Assembly (NCBI GenBank): GCA_024679065.1 | Contig: JAGIQG010000008.1 | Coordinates: forward strand, 27,590,001 to 27,654,000 | DNA length: 64,000 nt | Origin: Sphyrna mokarran | Lineage: Eukaryota | Direction: 5' to 3' | In this document: piece by piece, positions 7,281 through 64,000 of the stretch | How positions within the stretch are numbered: the first letter of the stretch is position 1 | Layout of the letters: every line of letters begins with the position of its first letter | Made by a program: the position numbers and the translations under genes | Notes under the pieces: model-generated | Seen by the model: the letters and a program-made list of their open reading frames with translations, nothing else | Database searches by the model: none | What the model was told of the DNA's origin: nothing

Positions 7281-8947
7281 ACATAGAACATAGAACATAG
7301 AACATTACAGCACAGAACAGGCCCTTCGGCCTTCGATGTTGCGCTGACCAATATAAAAAGCAATGCCCCTCCAAACTAAACCATTCCCTTCTCTTCCATA
7401 TACTTATCAACTAACCTCTTAAACGCCACCAAACTTGGCGCATCTACAACTGCTGCAGGCAGGGCATTCCACTCCCGAACCACCCTTTGGGTAAAGAACC
7501 TACCTCTGATATCCGTCCTATAACTATCACCCCTTAATTTAAAGCTGTGTCCCCTCGTGCTAGCTTTCTCCATCCTAGGAAAAAGGCTATCACTGTCCAC
7601 CCTATCTAAACCTCTAATCATCTTATATGTTTCGATCAGGTCCCCTCTTAGCCTCCTCCTTTCTAACGAAAACAACCTCAAATCCCTCAGCCTCTCCTCA
7701 TAAGACCTGCCCTCCATACCAGGCAACATCCTGGTAAACCTCCTCTGTACCCTCTCCAATGCCTCCACATCTTTCTTATAATGCGGGGACCAGAACTGCA
7801 CACAATACTCCAAGTGCGGCCGCACTAGAGTTTTGTACAGTTGCAACATGACGTTGCGGCTCCGAAATTCAATCCCTCTACCAATAAAAGCCAAGACTCC
7901 ATATGCCTTCCTAACAACCTTCTCGACCTGACTGCCTACTTTCAGGGATCTATGCACATACACACCAAGATCCCTCTGTTCATCTAGACTACTAAGAATC
8001 CTACCATTTGCCCTATACTCTACACATTTATTATTTCTGCCATAGTGCATTACCTCACACTTTTCCACATTAAACTCCATTTGCCACCTCTCGGCCCAGC
8101 TCTGCAACTTGTCCAAGTCCCTCTGCAAACTATAACACCCCTCTTCACTATCTACCACTCCACCGACTTTAGTGTCATCTGCAAATTTACTAATCCATCC
8201 TTCAATACCCTCATCCAGATCATTTATAAAAATTACAAACAGCAGGGGCCCCAAAACAGACCCCTGAGGTACACCACTTGTCACCGAACTCCACGATGAA
8301 TATCTCCCATCAACCACCACCCTCTGTCTTCTATCTGCTAGCCAATTCCTAACCCAATTAGCTAAATCACCCTCTATCCCATACATCTGCATTTTCTGCA
8401 GAAGTCTTCCATGGGCCACCTTATCAAACGCCTTACTAAAGTCCATATATACCACATCAACCGCCTTACCCCCATCCACCTCTTTAGTCACTTTTTCAAA
8501 AAACTCAATGAGGTTAGTAAGGCACGACCTACCCTTCACAAAACCATGCTGACTATCCCCAATCAATTCATTTCTCTCTAAATAACTATAAATCCTATCC
8601 CTAATTATTCTCTCCAATACTTTGCCCACAACAGAAGTAAGACTCACTGGCCTATAATTCCCTGGAAGGTCTCTCTTCCCCTTCTTGAACAACGGGACCA
8701 CATTCGCTATCCTCCAGTCCTCCGGAACCACACCCGTAACCAACGACGACCTGAAGATCAGAGCCAGAGGCTCTGCAATCTCCTCTCTTGCCTCCCAGAG
8801 AATCCTAGGGTAAATCCCGTCCGGCCCAGGGGACTTATCCAACTTCAAACCCTCGAGAATATCTAGCACATCCTCCCTATCTACTTCGATACCTTCCAGT
8901 TTGCTACCCTGTACCTCAGTGTTCTCCATAACTACATTTACATCTCC
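7281..8947 (-). mobile_element. Young 5'-truncated CR1/HER1-type LINE
   Basis: Uninterrupted RT ORF, CpGs retained, 3' UTR hairpin (..AAGGCCGAAGGGCC..) and (TGTTCTA)3 tail at 7281-7304; essentially no TSD (single A). Confidence 0.95.
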
Positions 8948-9007
8948 TGAGAGCTTCTTGACCAGGCCAGGGATGGCAGCTAGAAAGATGGAGAAGAATA
9001 GGTGCAT
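7376..9007 (-). CDS. Open frame encoding CR1 ORF2 reverse transcriptase and C-terminus (no endonuclease); first ~20 aa come from the flanking RTE
   Basis: 543-aa ORF with KSPGPDG, NYRPVSLTS, QHGF, DFSKAFD, GVPQGSVLGP, FADD and DLGV motifs typical of CR1-clade RT. Expression is not evidenced. Confidence 0.75.
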   Translation of the reverse strand: MHLFFSIFLAAIPGLVKKLSGDVNVVMENTEVQGSKLEGIEVDREDVLDILEGLKLDKSPGPDGIYPRILWEAREEIAEPLALIFRSSLVTGVVPEDWRIANVVPLFKKGKRDLPGNYRPVSLTSVVGKVLERIIRDRIYSYLERNELIGDSQHGFVKGRSCLTNLIEFFEKVTKEVDGGKAVDVVYMDFSKAFDKVAHGRLLQKMQMYGIEGDLANWVRNWLADRRQRVVVDGRYSSWSSVTSGVPQGSVLGPLLFVIFINDLDEGIEGWISKFADDTKVGGVVDSEEGCYSLQRDLDKLQSWAERWQMEFNVEKCEVMHYGRNNKCVEYRANGRILSSLDEQRDLGVYVHRSLKVGSQVEKVVRKAYGVLAFIGRGIEFRSRNVMLQLYKTLVRPHLEYCVQFWSPHYKKDVEALERVQRRFTRMLPGMEGRSYEERLRDLRLFSLERRRLRGDLIETYKMIRGLDRVDSDSLFPRMEKASTRGHSFKLRGDSYRTDIRGRFFTQRVVREWNALPAAVVDAPSLVAFKRLVDKYMEEKGMV

Positions 9008-9329
9008 CCTTGCTGGATGCCAGTTCTGATGGGGAAGGCATCAGATTTTAGTCCATTGCAGAGTATGGTGGGGCAGTCATTTTGTCATCACCTGCATATA
9101 GGCAGCAATGTACTGATGGTAATTAAGCACCTGGATAAAACTCGGGTATTTCTTAGCAGAAAATACCATGAGTGAGCAGGCTTTCTTGGAATCCCCTCAT
9201 ACCCTGCATGGGTAAGGACATAGGAAAGGTGTCCTAAACATAGTTATATAATCCGTGTTACTTTTTCATGGTTAACTGCATTCAGCAGGTTCATTTACTT
9301 TTACAGCTATAAAAATAAGAATACTGAAA

Positions 9330-47249: not shown

Positions 47250-48000
47250 CAGCTATTATGGCATACTATCCATGTATCCCTTTCTCCATTATATCGTGGT
47301 CTCATGTTTCTCAGCATTCCTCTGGCCCTCCTGCACCTCCTCATCCTCCTATTCTAAGGAGGACTTCTCCGCCAGTTTACCCTCTGTCAGGGCCTTACCT
47401 TTCTGGAAAGCCAGACAGTGAAGGACTCAGCAAACTGCAATCATACGACAAACCATCTCTGGGATGTATTTCGGAAAGCCACCTGAGCGATCCCTGCATC
47501 TGTTGCAATAAGAGCTATGTTGTATCTTTCCTCAGCTGGAGTTTGAGGGTGACACAGCGGAGTCATAGCCAATGTTTTAAATGAGTAACCCATATCTTCC
47601 AGCGCCATCCCTGCAGACTTTCCAGCCCCTCGAAGTTCCCAGGCACCAGAGAGTGACTGAGGACATTGGAATCATGGCAAATCTCAGGGAACTGAGCACA
47701 CACATGGAGGATTTTCTTTCGATGGTCACACATCAATTGCATGTTGATAGATTGGAAGCTCTTGTGGGTTATGAACATCAAAGTTTGCTGTCTTGGAGAC
47801 CATATCACCACATGGGTGCAGCCTGTTGCTCTCTGCAGTTTTGAGATTCCCGAGATAGCTGCAAAACCCTTAAATCTCTGAGCATAGCTATCCTCATTCA
47901 GAGCAAAGTTTACATAATGTTGGGCCCACCTGTAAAATTGCAGCCTTGCTCTGCACTGCCATTCATTCAGCAGACTTGTGGACAACAGATACTTGGTATT
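47250..48000 (-). mobile_element. PIF/Harbinger (HARBI1-like) transposase pseudogene
   Basis: GFAAISGISKLQRATGCTHVVI..HKSFQSINMQLMCDHRKKILHVCAQFPEICHDSNVL..LQGW..WL, then MTPLCHPQTPAEERYN..RCRDRSGG. Catalytic D of DCTH and the GD motif are lost. Confidence 0.88.
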
Positions 48001-49049
48001 GTGTGTCACCTCCACTGTCTGGCTCTTTGACCCTAGCCTCCATTGATATTCAGGCTCCCTCCTACCCACGTCCCCTAAACAGTGCCTCCAGCTGGAGCTG
48101 CATACACTGATGCCTTTCCTTCCTCCTGTCTCAATGTGGTTTCTGAGAAAAGCTCCCTGAAACATTGGATCAATTTTCACTTTCACAGCCTCTCTGTAAT
48201 GACCAAAGTGATTAGAGGGTGACAAAAAGAAAGATACGATCAAGAGAACAATGGGAAAAGTTGGGCAATTAAGCTTTGGCAATTTAGATTGCATTCTTCT
48301 TCATGCTGTCTTACCCCGGGACTCTAGCACACAAAGAGATGAGCAACTTTTCATTCCACAGATGTGACATCTGGAACCCTGTGGGGGTAAGAACTTGTGA
48401 ATCACATCACTGAACCGGTCTGGCTCTGAACACCAATTTTTGACTTGGTATAACTGAACATTCAATTGCTCATAGTAAATGAATGAAATCTATTCGGCCA
48501 CTGATGAATGACATTAGTATTAACCCCTGATTTCCCTTCACTGATAGGATGGCTGAGCTGATGCAGTTCTGCCACTTTCACTATGGCCTTTATTCTCCAA
48601 GACTGCATTCCTATCTTCCACGACATGGCTGTCCAAACTTTGACAAGAGCACATTGAGTTGTGTCTAATCCTTTAAAAGCTCAAAATTCGAAATCTGGCT
48701 TGCTCTTCTCTCCTGGGCGACGGGCTCTGAGTCCTGTGTGTAATTAATCTGGACCCAGTCCAGTGTAGCAACATCAACAAATGAATATACATCCCAAGAA
48801 GTTGCCCCAAAGCCCAGCTTGGCAGTTCTCTTACATTTCATCAAACCAATGTGCACAATGTCATGTTACCTGAGTGTCAAGATGGTGGTGCCTACACCTG
48901 TTATTAACAGATAGAGTTCAACATTCTCTCCTTCAATATCCACAGGTCTCCCATTTATCTGGAGCCACATGATGTGCATCCCAATTGTTTGAAACCCAAT
49001 TGTTTGAAAAGTGGCCTGCATAAGACAGCTGTCAATTTGCCAGAGACTT

Positions 49050-57202: not shown

Positions 57203-58169
57203 GTTATGAAGGCTATGCTTACCTTGTTGAGAGCATGGCTGGAGAACGAAAGTTGTGCTTTTGAGTCAGTGCGAGAGTGCATCCTCAGATATCCAGGGAA
57301 GCAAAATCTCAGGAGATGAAATTGAAACCCTGGGCCTTCATTGTTGCCATCCAAGTTGGAAGAATGTTACAGAAAATTCTGAGGTTAGATCTTTAAAGAT
57401 AAAGACTCAAATCTCTTGTGAGAATGACAGTTTCAGTTGGATTGGTTGACTCTGTCTTTACAGACACCTGGGTGGATTGTTGCAAAATCCATGGACTCTT
57501 TCTTGATTGCATCTATCATTTATTGTGCAGTGTGGGTCTTCAACCACAGTTTGCCTGTTAATTCATATGTACCACATATTACCCCTGAAAGTTGGAGTAA
57601 AAGGTGGATATTGTAATTTGTTTTATTTTTGTGATCTGGTAACATTTATTTTTGTTTGTTTAAAACCTGCAGAGCAGCGACATGCAACTTAAGCTGGAGA
57701 GTGGATCACATGAGTGACTCTCCTTCACCTCTGTGAACCACAAGATTGAAATCAGACTTGTTCAATAACCATCACTCTATGAATAAGGTAAAGTACATTT
57801 AATACACACCAATCATTTCATAATGAGTAATGGAAATTTTTAACCATTTAAATATTGATATATATTACACAGTTCTCACAGTCAATGTTGTGTGCAATCA
57901 GTATGCACCTCACTTCACTTCCCTTACTTTACATGCACATCACTTCCGTCACACTGGTGGGAAAGAAATATGTAGACAGAAATCAGCAGAATGTGGCAAC
58001 ATTGAGCATGGACAACAATCAACATGATCCAGTCTCAGAACCCAGGTGGGTTACATTCACTTAGTAATTATCCTTAAATTGCAAACTTTGGCAAATCTTA
58101 ACAAAATGCTATACTGAAGTCTAACAGAATTCTCCCAAAAACTTGGGGGTTTGGCCTAGGGTCATAAAA
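57203..58169 (+). mobile_element. LTR-like sequence preceding the PBS (5' boundary uncertain, possibly composite)
   Basis: Starts TGTTATG; ends GGGTCATAAAA just before the PBS. Confidence 0.42.
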
Positions 58170-58192: not shown

Positions 58193-58339
58193 TTCAGATC
58201 TACAGAAAAATGGCAGTGCTGGTATTCACTGAGGTCAAGTTTGATAAGGTTTACACTGTAAATTTTGGTTTGCTAATTAAAAAGCAGGATGGCTTTGTCA
58301 ATCACCATGATTCTTCTGGAGAGAGAAGGTTTATCCTTG

Positions 58340-59921
58340 ATGATCTGGGACAATTAACCAAAGTTAGGTTAATCGCATTAGCAAAAAAGTTAAAAGCAGG
58401 AATAAAAGAGTAGAAATAATTGAGGAAGCAGCATAGCATCTGGGATTGGAAGAAAAAAAAAATCCAGATGGCAATTCAGTTGAGTTAGCTAGAATTCATT
58501 TGCAAATTATACAGCTTGAAATAGGAAAAGAGAGGAAAAAAAGTTTGAACTGGGAAAAAAGGAAAAGGAAAGAGCAAAAGAGAAAAAAATAAAAGGTTTG
58601 ATCTGAACAAGTAAGTTGAAACATGAAAGCTCAGGTTTCAAAGAGAGAGATCATATAAATTGGTCAGAGAAAAGCTTAGGTTTCAGGGTGAGAGAGAATA
58701 TAATAATTTGGATGAGGAATCAAGTCTCATTCTGAGCTTCGATATAACAAGAAATCTTTATCTATTTCCTAAATTTGTTGAAGACGGAGTTGAGAAATAT
58801 TTCATCTCATGTGAAAATCTGGCTACAAAGCTAAAATGGTCAACGAATACATAATATCTCCTTTTGCAAAGCATTTTGTCAGGAAAGGTATGAATGTGTA
58901 TTCCACTTTCAGAAGAACAGAACAATCTTCAAATTATAAGGAAGTTAAAACTGCAACATTTAATACTTATAAGCTTGTCCCCGAAGAAGATGAGTTGAAA
59001 TTTTAGACTTTAAAGCAAAGATTGAATGAAACATTTGTGGCATTTGCTTGGGAGAAATTAATTCTGTGGGGCCGGTGTTTTCAACCACCAAAGTTAAAAC
59101 AAAATTTTGAGAAAGTGGAGGGATTAATGATACAGGAGGAATTTCAAAACAGCATCTCAATAGTGATTAGATTATACTTGGAACATGATAAGATTTCTAA
59201 GGAATGGGAAGTAGCAGTTCTGGCAGATGGATGAGATATATAACATAGGCAGTTTAGGAGAGCACATCCCCATTTGTAAACTCACAGGAATGCTGCAGGA
59301 ACAGAAAATAATCTAGTTTTATGGAAAAAACAGAGGCTGTTCCAGTCAAGAAAAATCGAAGTGTGGAGGATAAAAGTAATTTGACAAAGCCATAAAACAG
59401 GGCATCTCAAAAACCCATTGTTAGAAGTTGCACAGTAAGCTGGTGGCAGTTGTAGAAACACTCATGGAGTCTTTAGAAAAGACTATAACATAAATGGAAA
59501 TGAATGTTAAAATTATAGTAATAGCGCAAGTGAAACGTCTTCTATCAGAACCTACTAGAAGGAATTCTTCCTTAACTACTGTTAAAGTATGTCAAGTTAC
59601 TGGAGGTTTTTGAGGTTATATTGAAGGGAAAAGTGTTCCCTTTGTCATCCAACAAGACATGTAAACACATTAATAGCTTTAGAGACAATGTGGCAAATCA
59701 GTCATTGATAGCCGTTGATTTAATTTACGTTCCAGATGATTTGAAAGAGAAAGCATTAATACAAAATTATTAATGGAATTTATGGTTCTGTTTCCTTCTG
59801 TAAAGTCTATTTATGAAGTAAATTAGCAAATTAATTTGTCATTGTGGCAATTGTTCCCAGTTTACCTATTGATGGGACAGATTTAATTTTGGATAATGAT
59901 TTGGCCAATGCAGGCAGTAAC
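58340..59921 (+). mobile_element. Decayed Gypsy (Gmr1/SCAN-like) gag and aspartic protease
   Basis: FDITRNLYLFPKFVEDGVEKYFISCENLATKLKW..LLLQSILSGK..YKLVPE..TFVAFAWEK..EEFQNSI..AVLAD (gag); FRDNVANQSLI (decayed LRDTGASQSL, 59678-59710); IVPSLPIDGTDLILDNDLA (protease end). Confidence 0.85.
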
Positions 59922-59924
59922 ATG

Positions 59925-60766
59925 ATGACGGCTACATTGCAGCAGGTGATTGAAAATGCTGATCTTACCAAACTTCAAAAAATTATTGTGGCCAAATATG
60001 AGAAACTTATTCCTGACAAGGAGCAATTGAAAAAAGATCTGATTAGAGTAGAGAAACAACTTTTTCGCATGAAAGATGAGTTTGCTTACGAAAAGCAAGA
60101 ACAGATGAAAAAAAAACTCGATTATTTAGCAAAGAATTAAGAATTGCAGATAAATCGAAATATTTGGTTGAATGCAGGATTTAAAAACAAGACTGATGAA
60201 TGACTGGAACTTCATCATAAAAAGGGCAATGAGATTTCTGAACTTCAATGCAATTTGGAGAACATGAGAAATTAAGAGCTGGATTTTCAAGTCGCACTCA
60301 CTCCAAGGCCAGAAATTTCTGCCTGAGGTTAACTGACCTTTGCACGGTCTTCTGAATTTTCTACCCTGCCCATTACAATTCAGCCCAAAATGTCTCTAAC
60401 ATTAAAGGGCAAATCTAGACTTTAAATCTCAATAAGGTTTGAAGAGACAGACTGAAGATCTAGCAATCAAATCAAACAAGTCTGAGGAGCAACCACTAAT
60501 CATGGAAGAAAGACTCCAAAAGGAACTGAATGCCAAGGTGAAGCTGTTCAGCTTGTAAAAGGTAACAGAATCAAAGACAACTGAATTCATCAGAGTAGTT
60601 GCAGAGCTGAATAAAAAGATTAATAAGCTTGGAAAATAATTGAAAAATAACAGAGTGAACAAATATTTGGAAGGAACGATAAAATGAAGGTTCCATTTTT
60701 CAAGCACCAGCAAGGAGGAAATAGCGTGTGCAAAAGGCTGTAGCATATCTCTTGGATAAACTAAAA
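59925..60766 (+). pseudogene. TPR: Intronless, internally deleted copy of nucleoprotein TPR N-terminal coiled coil, in frame with the retroelement protease
   Basis: Colinear blocks match remembered human TPR: MTATLQQVIENADLTKLQK ~ MAAVLQQVLERTELNKLPK; NIWLNAGFKNKTDE*LELHHKKGNEISELQCNLEN ~ [54 protein letters not shown] ~ [29 protein letters not shown] ~ NKRINKYLD; RVQKAVAYLLDKL ~ RAQKAVASLSVKL. Confidence 0.85.
60276..60386. mobile_element. MITE (same family as 33066) inserted in the TPR copy
   Basis: Ends GAGCTGGATTTT / ACAATTCAGCCC; left flank TAA; internal similarity to 33066-33193; TPR similarity resumes after it. Confidence 0.7.
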
Positions 60767-61444
60767 AATTACTTGAGTAAATACTCCCTCAGTGCAAGTT
60801 TATTCATCCAATATTGAAAACAATGAAAAGAGAAAATCTGTTATGGAGGAAGTAATCAAGGAAGATAATTGTGAAGCTGGTTGCCAATCAGACATACACT
60901 ATTTCCATAGCAAACTTAAAGGAATATTTCTATTAACAGTGAAGAAGTGCAAACTAAACCTCATGTTCTCCTCTATTGACAAACCTATGCAACGGTCATT
61001 TGTATCACAGAGTATGGATCCATATTTGAAGAGTGGAAGATAGCCAGAGTATTTATTTGTAGTCACATCAATTAGTTTGAAACCAGTGGTACAAAGTAGA
61101 GATACAAGCTGGTCAAGATATTTCTAAAACAAAGCTTTAAAAAATTTTCACTATCTTTGGTTGACCATGAAAAGACTATTGGCAAACATTATGTAATTGT
61201 TGGGATTCTATTTAGTCTTTAAAGAAATGGCGTCAGATCCTGAGTTATTATAGTTCTAGATATATGAATCCTGCTAATTCTATTGATACATGTACTGACA
61301 TTTGTTTAGGTTAAACCTTTGTAACTAAATAATGCAGTTGGTGTAATTGTGGAACAAAATACCGCTGGTCTGTAGGGAATATAACAAGCTATTGATTAAA
61401 GATTTATGATGTTAATCACCTAGACCTTCCTTCTTAACTGCACA

Positions 61445-61550
61445 ATGGAGTGCAGCAGTTAAAGACAGCAGCCCATCTCCTGAAGGACAGTTAGGGTTGG
61501 GCAATAAATGCTAGCCCAACCAGCAATCCCCACATCCCATGAAAGCAATT
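61445..61550 (+). mobile_element. 3' tail of the 13570-15490 LINE family
   Basis: TTAGGGTTGGGCAATAAATGCTAGCCCAACCAGC..CCCACATCCCATGAA. Confidence 0.75.
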
Positions 61551-62035
61551 TTTTTTAAAAGGAGAACAAGCAACAGTAAAACGCATATGAACAAGCTCTG
61601 TCAATTAGACATTGGCATCCATTAGCTTAATTATTAGCACTCATGATGTTTAAAGAATAGTAGAAATTTTGGACCAATGTGTGATGAAACACAGGCAGAA
61701 GTGGGCTGCAGCCAGACCAAAGTTAATGGGTCATTTGTGTGCCTGATCACTGGAGGGTTAGATTGCAGATGAATTCTGCTCTGTCTGTCTCAGATATGAA
61801 TCTCAATTGGCTGATGTACAGGGGAATATTGATGGTGTCACCTACAGAGATGCTGGTTACATTGGCTGGCCTATGGGACACTTTCAGTGTCAAAGGATAT
61901 TCCTTCTGGCTCCAACTTGGCAGAGAGCAAGACTTCCTCTCTACAGCCTCTAACTCACCCCCTCATTGTGAAGAACAACAGGCACAGCAGCTGCAGTCCA
62001 CATGTTCATTGTCAATTGTCGCTTAGTCAACTATA

Positions 62036-62114
62036 AACTAAAAGCAAAATACTGCAGATGCTGGAAATCTGAAATAAAAACAGAAAATGCTGGAGAAACT
62101 CAGCAGCTGGCAGC
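62036..62114 (-). mobile_element. Penelope-type terminal repeat fragment (hammerhead part missing)
   Basis: AAAGCAAAATACTGCAGATGCTGGAAATCTGAAATAAAAACAGAAAATGCTGG, as at 2108 and 39508. Confidence 0.75.
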
Positions 62115-62230
62115 ACCACTACACTCTGCACATTCTCGTTTCTTCTCTATGAACGATACACTTTGTCAGTGTCATGCGCAAGAAACCATACTTTTCACTG
62201 TACACTAATACATGTGACAATAATAAATCA
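62115..62230 (+). mobile_element. Rex1/Babar-type LINE 3' tail
   Basis: Reverse complement of 13850-13955 (GCGCAAGA..ATACTTTTCACT..ACATGTGACAATAATAAATCA). Confidence 0.75.
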
Positions 62231-62254
62231 CTTGTGGTGAGAGAAATTTGTTTT

Positions 62255-62893
62255 GGGCAGAATTCTCCCAAAGAAGTCTAAGTATCATAAAGCTAATGAA
62301 GTGACTTGTGCCAGCATGTCAGATTGCTATTTTCCCACTCTTAGTCTTTTTTGGGAGAATGGCGGTTTTGTATTTTCTGAAAGGGGCAGAGACTAAATAC
62401 ACCGGTTTAGAGGTTACCTCAATCTCAGATGAGATGGAAAAGCCCGTCCCTCCCTCCCCCAGGTAATCAGGACACGGTCCCAAAGTTAACACATTTCTCA
62501 TCCCTCCCCACTAAAGACTGCCAGCATCAAGGCTTTCCCAATGTCCTTCCTTTGAGCCCCACCCTTTTATGACTCCCCCCCTTCGTAGCCTCCTCTTCAT
62601 GCCCCATCCCTTTCATGCCCCCCTCCATTCATGATTTCCACTCAGGTCCCATCCCCTCAGCGCCGACAAACTGGCACATTTGACGGGGGTGGGGGAGTGG
62701 AGGGGAGGGGTAGTGTTGCATGCTGAACTCGCTAATGAGATTGAAATGCAGCCAATCGCATGCAAATCAGCCTCACAACTTTTCAAACAAGCTTCATATT
62801 TGAAAAGGGCCAGGAGAATTGCAAACTGTTTCGCACGCTATTGCCCGGATGGCACGATCTACAAATGGAGCATTGAGGGTGGAGAATCACCCC
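62255..62893. mobile_element. Non-autonomous Harbinger-type element
   Basis: Ends GGGCAGAATTCTCC / GGAGAATCACCCC; additional inverted repeat at 62262-62282 and 62340-62360 (19/21). Confidence 0.6.
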
Positions 62894-64000
62894 CAATGTT
62901 TCAACACCATTTGTTACCTGATTCAAAACATCAATTTCAGCTTCTCCCTCCACAGATTACCATCAGTTCCATTCCTGTTGGTGCTCATAAGAGTTTTCCG
63001 TATGCATACTCTTTTCAAAATGATACACAAGTAGACCATGTTGGAAATAACTACAAATGTCCCCAGGAGGGCTTTGGGCTTCTTTGGTCCATCTCCAGCA
63101 ATGTGAGGATCTGAATTTTGCACCCAGTATATTTCAAATATATCTTAAAAATAGAAAGCTTGTCTACAATGCTTTTAACCTTACATGTTTTATAATGCAC
63201 ACAATAACTGCAATATCATTTAGTTGCCAAGTTACGTCTACTTCTAAATAAAACTCGACTTCGAATCATTTTTCTTGCTACAGAAGTTTTTTTTGCCAAA
63301 GTTAACATTTTGCACCTTTTTAAAAAGGTAATGTTGTTACTAAACTCTGATTTGAGCTTTTATAGATCCTATTCATCTGCAATAGCTCTTAAAATTAAAT
63401 AGTGCATTAATGACAGAAACCAAGGTAATGGAAAAAAGGGCATGCTCTCTATGACTCTTTCTGATTTAAATCATTGGGCATAAAGGCGGTTTACAAAGTA
63501 GACTCAAAGAATTAAAAGCCAGCTTTTATGAAAACTATTAATAACATATTAAAGTAAGACAATCTATACCAAAAGTAGTGAAATGGCACATTCTTTGGAA
63601 ACTAAATTAACTGCAGCCATAGAAACACTTTCATACTTATTATGTATCCTTGTGTTGATGCAATTATCAAAAGAACATCTGACAGCATCAGATTTAATTG
63701 AATTAATTTAACTGGATGAACAATCACTGAATTCCTGTTATTTGAAATTTCTTCTGAAAACTAACACTGGCATTTTGAAATTGCCTATAATTTGTATTCC
63801 GAAATACAATAGAAAGAACCTCACACAGATCTTTATATTCAGAAAATCGTTTTTGGATTCATGAACAAACAAAAGTGCAAATGAAGGCACTGCAGTGAGG
63901 ACTGAATGTTTCCTATTATTTATCCCATTTTATTCACTTGGGACCAGTCTCTGGCTTTCAACTTTAATCAAGTACTAGACTACATTTTCAAATTCATTGG

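Follow-up and report, generated by a model that had tools for sequence, protein, structure and literature searches.

Shared in-frame deletions in a host TPR mRNA captured by an apparently non-autonomous Gmr1-like Gypsy element of a shark genome

LTR elements are already known to capture host mRNA, and the closest described systems are crocodilian endogenous retroviruses (ERVs), in which CrocERV31 has nectin3 in place of env and CrocERV29 carries a KIT-ligand sequence with shared in-frame indels (PMC4299795, in excerpt). Here we describe a related case in a 64,000-nucleotide stretch of Sphyrna mokarran DNA (the window), where a Gypsy element carries part of the nucleoporin TPR. Like CrocERV31 and CrocERV29, this is a spliced host mRNA in a multicopy vertebrate LTR element, a capture that usually costs the element genes of its own, and it too shows shared in-frame indels. 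Unlike the crocodilian cases, the carrier is a Gypsy (Gmr1-like) element, TPR is fused to Gag-protease and replaces integrase and reverse transcriptase (RT), nearly half of TPR has been removed by serial deletions, the copies seen are all dead, and selection on residues went undetected (both comparisons with PMC4299795, in excerpt). Transposons also take part of a host nuclear-export or silencing gene in Drosophila, in TART-A/nxf2 and in captures of piRNA-pathway genes by telomeric elements; those elements are non-LTR and a piRNA-based action has been proposed for them, whereas the shark signal is frame preservation in a protein fusion (PMC7785250; PMC13534243, both in excerpt). The N-terminal TPR coiled coil is likewise a portable module in the oncogenic TPR-MET/RAF/TRK fusions, but those are somatic and place TPR N-terminal to the kinase, whereas the shark TPR is inherited, trimmed and C-terminal to the protease (PMC3258255, in excerpt). 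TPR in a shark Gypsy element is apparently unreported: titles and abstract openings in the freely accessible literature yielded no report, and TPR is unmentioned in the main text of a survey of host genes in transposons (PMC3597677).

The element lies on the forward strand of the window. Its 5' LTR (57233..57670, ends approximate) matches both upstream and downstream positions in four other loci (L034, L037, L043 and L012), while self-alignment against 60700-64000 gave only a shuffle-level score and detected no 3' LTR for the window copy. A profile built from intact SCAN-gag/protease/integrase/RT polyproteins matches window 58339-60107 (E 3e-29), and 58339..59903 (+) holds a decayed SCAN-type gag and aspartic protease of Gmr1-like Gypsy type (E 3e-29 and 8e-13) that closes with the protease-end motif G-D-I-L-x-N-D-L. 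Pfam alone returned no relevant match on this gag-protease region. The profile also matches upstream of TPR in 18 of 29 ten-kb loci belonging to families B and C, described below. A high-copy repeat with very high contig depth separates the 5' LTR from the gag leader at window ~57670-58055; the same interval is a gap in matches to other element copies.

Integrase before RT is a hallmark of Gmr1 elements, and the intact polyprotein P0138 shows the order protease, integrase, RT. SCAN is typical of Gmr elements (PMC4131045, in excerpt). The shark element shares with Gmr1-like Ty3/Gypsy elements, P0138 among them, a SCAN-type gag and an aspartic protease; unlike them it has no integrase, RT or RNase H, and TPR plus a family-specific tail stand in their place. 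LTR pairs, 68-72% identical, surround gag-protease-TPR-tail in L034, L037 and L043, and no integrase or RT was found between them. In 40 of 41 ten-kb loci the sequence after TPR yielded no collinear integrase or RT, and for this reason the element appears to be a non-autonomous Gmr1-like derivative rather than a full member, its class assignment resting, for an element without RT, on gag-protease similarity. In the exception, L114 (L018; G000:C882:111.28 Mb), TPR is separated from the family-B tail by a PBS-like motif and a Gmr1-like fragment that covers the end of integrase and the start of RT. This fragment is probably a nested relative, and is a candidate lead to an autonomous partner family. 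A motif for the tRNA primer-binding site (PBS) gave degenerate matches only.

The genome (2.77 Gb) holds a single intron-containing TPR gene, at G000:C1548 ~55.30-55.39 Mb, with exons 65-100% identical (most >85%) to the whale-shark TPR P0003. We mapped 15 of its exons with GT-AG borders and used the spliced coding sequence (CDS) as reference for frame-blind DNA alignments. In these, window 59904-60775 matches the 5' end of the spliced host transcript (TPR codons 1 to ~465). Introns are absent and exon junctions are joined: window blocks span the junctions at CDS 333, 792 and 873, and other copies span those at 430 and 534. At the capture junction (59904..59921, +) the alignment reaches into the host 5' UTR, so that the protease-end motif, six codons of host UTR and the TPR start follow one another in frame, with constant spacing in 14 of the 15 motif-bearing copies. 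The TPR in the element is a captured spliced host mRNA. A LINE-made processed pseudogene, which would be expected to have the mRNA 3' end with poly(A) and a single origin per copy, was considered and rejected, as the copies do not show these features.

Among the 26 matches listed, non-host matches to whale-shark TPR stop by aa 359. TPR gives way to shared tails at CDS ~713, ~1325 or ~1393, and we did not find these tails to be continuations of host introns 6, 11 or 12. The captured part ends near aa 465 and is without aa 356-417; it holds neither the complete pore-binding region (aa 357-606) nor the SPOCD1 site (aa 775-877), and by this measure does not qualify as a functional nuclear-basket TPR. 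An annotated protease-TPR fusion protein did not emerge from two protein searches: one returned nothing, and of 16 matches in the other, the 13 inspected were TPR-only or protease-only. No RNA carrying the sequence was listed either, a result that has no bearing on expression.

In the window copy, a three-frame reading of 58200-61300 places a TPR-like stretch from 59922 inside a decayed retroelement. Pfam PF25481 matches this stretch (E 1.2e-7), and PDB matches to TPR are weak (E 0.02-0.07). Aligned to the host CDS, and all on the forward strand, 59922..60023 is CDS 1-102 (aa 1-34), followed by a shared 162-nt deletion; 60024..60138 joins CDS 265-277, across a shared 39-nt deletion, to CDS 317-~414 and ends at a 147-nt deletion; and 60139..60272 is CDS 563-696 (aa 188-232), where the Pfam match lies. 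A private, repeat-like 114-nt insertion then occupies 60273..60386, with only two weak 41-50-nt matches among other fetched loci. TPR resumes at 60387..60591 with CDS 697-915, which contains small private frameshifts and precedes a shared 96-nt deletion with 10-nt microhomology. CDS 1012-1065 (60592..60645) is followed by a 186-nt deletion present in every spanning copy, and CDS 1252-~1392 (60646..60775; aa 418-464), with frameshifts, ends the captured part. The family-B tail (60776..61400, +) has 42 other matches in the genome and no integrase profile match, and its first ~90 nt carry on the TPR frame. An integrase zinc finger suspected by eye at ~61050-61200 found no support from Pfam or from the polyprotein profile.

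An earlier note, made from the letters of this DNA, had described ~460 TPR residues squeezed into ~240 codons, and our alignment bears this out, with about 465 codons reduced to about 255 and blocks close to those it gave. It had also described these blocks as joined in frame within 59925-60272 and within 60439-60687. This is right for the large net gaps (162, 39, 144, 96 and 186 nt, each divisible by 3), of which the 144-nt gap is the shared 147-nt deletion plus 3 nt, with an A-run the likely place. At finer scale the 114-nt insertion and several 1-10-nt indels intervene, which the note did not mention. The block given as residues 187-310 is present as CDS 563-915 but is broken by the insertion and by small frameshifts before 60426. 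Farther on, the open frame over 60439-60687 contains 10-nt and 2-nt losses near 60562; since these cancel each other, and since four other organisms lack the 10-nt loss, its continuity is partly accidental. A junction supposed to fall where TPR has LEN twice reads ELEN / KQEN in the host shark TPR, with 2 nt of exact DNA microhomology, and TPR similarity, instead of ending near 60690, runs on with frameshifts to ~60775. Three stops interrupt the 59925-60272 segment and three the 60439-60687 segment.

We next considered the other copies. Searches of the shark's own genome gave at least 48, 24, 86, 26 and 40 matches, all lower bounds. After duplicate removal 111 loci were aligned to the host CDS and 105 were kept, a lower bound for the genome; the six dropped were L010, a tandem duplicate of L009, and L140, L141, L142, L144 and L153, which scored below 90. 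The 105 TPR-bearing loci are spread over many contigs, as amplification at unlinked places would have it, and the TPR-like fragments that shark genomes contain, over 100 in number, should be taken for repeats and not for paralogues. Two near-identical pairs, L005/L017 (about 95%, on different contigs, both kept in the counts) and L009/L010 (in tandem, 3.4 kb apart), are later segmental duplications and not transpositions.

In a star-like tree of 86 copies, two clades have support, A (34 copies) and C (22), and both are nested within the basal group B. The TPR frame of family B runs into the tail, where 19 copies show 16 stops in the TPR frame, 40 in the +1 frame and 48 in the +2 frame. Family C ends at CDS ~713 in a different tail, and family A spans CDS ~240-290 to ~1325 with its own downstream sequence (L116:6311-7500 (-), L107 and other family-A loci). 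Upstream of TPR, family A carries an unrelated coiled-coil-like sequence that is itself multicopy (44 other matches at 66-83% identity) and whose open reading frame matches no Pfam family, and a gag-protease match was found in none of 11 family-A loci. Family A may have arisen when a second element acquired the TPR module by recombination; alternatively, it may represent a second captured gene. At least five family-A copies share a 21-nt in-frame insertion. TPR aa ~188-206 and ~218-233 are retained in all three subfamilies. The least-deleted copies are L099 (G000:C783:41.62-41.63 Mb), L156, L043/L106 and L169, and L054/L099 retains most of CDS 15-1065; these copies help to place the deletions in order.

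Eight large deletions are common to copies (162, 39, 51, 117, 147, 33, 96 and 186 nt), and all eight are multiples of 3, as the earlier note had anticipated. We defined this list from modal lengths: the modal net length is 186 nt in 29 of 57 copies, 96 in 33 of 45, 33 in 13 of 17, 117 in 6 of 13 and 201 in 6 of 12, the 201-nt gap being 162 + 39, with L161 carrying 39 alone. The ~147-nt event measures 146, 147, 148 and 144 nt in four copies (L049, L143, L149 and L170) and also occurs in the window. The ~51-nt event comes from three noisy copies with lengths of 52, 52 and 49 nt, and we take its length to be 51 nt, the offset at which a 10-nt microhomology occurs. Exon 11 matches the host alone and non-host matches to exon 12, all 39 listed, begin at exon position 45 or later, and thus the 186-nt deletion is in every copy seen. 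The 96-nt segment is still present in L054 and L169, showing that the deletions were stepwise. The four commonest deletion modes are identical in loci found by DNA search only. Sharing among copies, which had been proposed as a check, holds across the copy set, and some events act as subfamily markers. The 147-nt deletion corresponds to host CDS 415-561, is exactly seven heptads long and is readable as GT...AG without a pyrimidine tract; cryptic splicing of element RNA is a possible origin.

Private indels provide a built-in neutral control for these shared events. In contrast to the shared deletions, all of which are in frame, only 19 of 61 private deletions of at least 10 nt and 59 of 244 of 1-9 nt keep the frame (shared versus private of at least 10 nt, Fisher p = 2.7e-4; p = 6.8e-4 without the 51-nt event). 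Internal branches of at most 1.56 substitutions per site carry the eight shared events, while terminal branches totalling 18.4 carry seven private deletions of at least 30 nt, an enrichment that is rough, as the filter drops some private events near shared junctions. One-nucleotide indels recur at a few sites in 4-6 copies each, mostly across unrelated subfamilies, and we read these as slippage hot spots. Conservation of heptad phase, also proposed in the earlier note, was rejected: one of the eight lengths is a multiple of 7, and five of eight fall in {0,3,4} mod 7 (p = 0.22).

Substitutions tell of no such constraint. Singletons are neutral (nonsynonymous over expected, 0.96-1.07), and the copies decayed neutrally after insertion. 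On the subfamily stems, with changes polarised by host and group B, nonsynonymous to synonymous counts are 9:3, 10:4 and 12:2 (sum 31:9; omega ~0.7-1.5, not significant), so that purifying selection on residues was not detected in these 40 stem changes, where power is low. Stops among the same 40 changes number 0 against 2.5 expected, a weak deficit. For the differences from the host that are near fixation omega is 0.13-0.37, but we rejected this as evidence of constraint: synonymous change on the host branch alone suffices, and that branch is confounded with the element branch. Overall, the constraint seen acts on frame and, at this low power, not on residues, and the coding constraint claimed earlier stands in the former sense only.

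Contigs of four other organisms cover 59025-61418 at about 92-93% identity and carry what appears to be the same 114-nt insertion. Copies within the genome are on average 65-73% identical to each other, and TPR copies are now ~73% identical to the host. Judging from these identities and from those of the LTR pairs, the insertions are probably several times older than the split of the five organisms.

We think it likely that these copies descend from a non-autonomous Gmr1-like element whose Gag-protease-TPR-tail frame had to remain open and in which TPR acted as a length-flexible coiled coil or as read-through filler. Such an element picked up the spliced 5' end of TPR (~18 nt of UTR and ~465 codons) after its protease, presumably by RT template switching, and TPR lies spliced and in frame at this position, in place of integrase and RT. 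The resulting LTR-gag-protease-TPR-tail-LTR element would then have been copied by helper enzymes into at least 105 places. Large deletions were frequent while lineages replicated, with only the frame-preserving ones passed on. This filter points to a long open frame that was translated and had to stay open, and suggests that the hybrid protein was produced, and was of consequence, during the spread of the element. The identity of the retained residues would have been of little importance; TPR most probably served as a coiled-coil, oligomerising part of the Gag-protease polyprotein, or else as filler through which translation had to pass to reach the tail, perhaps as a way of escaping nonsense-mediated decay. 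Once inserted, the copies underwent neutral decay, and no intact copy of the fusion, nor a protein record of one, was found among the copies and records searched.

The simplest alternatives deny that selection kept the frame. Exon skipping in host transcripts, or private decay of the window copy, is scarcely credible as the source of the gaps: although the 147-nt deletion has a readable GT start and AG end and a single breakpoint comes within 5 nt of where an exon ends, none of the deletions runs from one exon border to another (distances 5-80 nt), in keeping with the earlier expectation that breakpoints ignore exon boundaries, and five of five window deletions recur in other copies. The deletions are frame-preserving, unlike exon skipping and not private, and both ideas are already refuted, cryptic splicing being conceivable for the 147-nt event alone. 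A mutational account, in which RT jumps between repeats of the coiled-coil mRNA are biased to in-frame offsets, draws on the in-frame fraction in the TPR CDS, which climbs with microhomology from 0.32 at 0 nt to ~0.5 at 5-7 nt and 3 of 3 at 10 nt, and on the neutral-like omega of the stems. With the present-day host gene as reference, exact microhomology reaches 10 nt at two of the eight junctions, as RT microhomology jumps, invoked in the earlier note, would predict, but is 0-4 nt at the other six; conditioned on the observed microhomologies, eight of eight in frame has a probability of 1.9e-3. This account would also have to cover further events, namely the protease junction and the tail, both in frame, and the insertion of 21 nt, and we regard it as improbable and already disfavoured.

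Other alternatives give the capture a role against the host. Antisense piRNAs from the captured sequence could have acted on host TPR, leaving the protein irrelevant; TART-A and nxf2 in Drosophila offer a precedent (PMC7785250; PMC13534243, both in excerpt) and TPR has roles in transposon control (PMC7618654, in excerpt), but frame preservation is not predicted, and this very improbable process could only add to the open-frame explanation. An active decoy is conceivable though unlikely: here the element-borne TPR coil would pair with host TPR or its partners, weakening retention of unspliced retroelement RNA, or would dock particles at the nuclear basket. Unspliced Gag/Pol-CTE RNA is exported more when TPR is knocked down, with retention needing pore localisation (PMC3258255, in excerpt), and piRNA-directed LINE1 methylation in mouse needs TPR for completeness (PMC7618654, in excerpt); the preserved frame and the two segments kept in all three subfamilies also fit. 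Against a decoy, the captured part falls short of M489 in the Nup153-binding region and is distant from the SPOCD1 site, the universal 186-nt deletion takes part of the ZC3HC1-binding segment aa 386-481 (bioRxiv 10.64898/2026.10.08.757499, in excerpt), constraint on residues was not detected, and heptad phase is not conserved.

Copy by copy, these loci preserve a fossil record in which a vertebrate Gypsy element captured the mRNA of an essential nucleoporin and trimmed it stepwise under frame constraint. Since TPR both limits how much unspliced RNA of retroviral type is exported and aids silencing by piRNAs, this capture makes conflict between transposons and the nuclear basket testable. One speculative, rather doubtful extension is counter-defence, in which a trimmed TPR coil on Gag-protease disturbed the nuclear basket, or docked there, and proved useful enough to pass from one subfamily to another and also to family A, an unrelated element. 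If true, a shark retrotransposon lineage would have turned the host's gatekeeper for unspliced RNA against the host.

Elsewhere in the window, 7376-9040 (-) holds a 554-aa reverse transcriptase open frame, which we take to be of CR1-type LINE origin; similar pieces are inserted in many element copies. A 245-aa open frame at 47563-48300 (-) presumably resembles, in its C-terminal part, a Harbinger-type DDE transposase.
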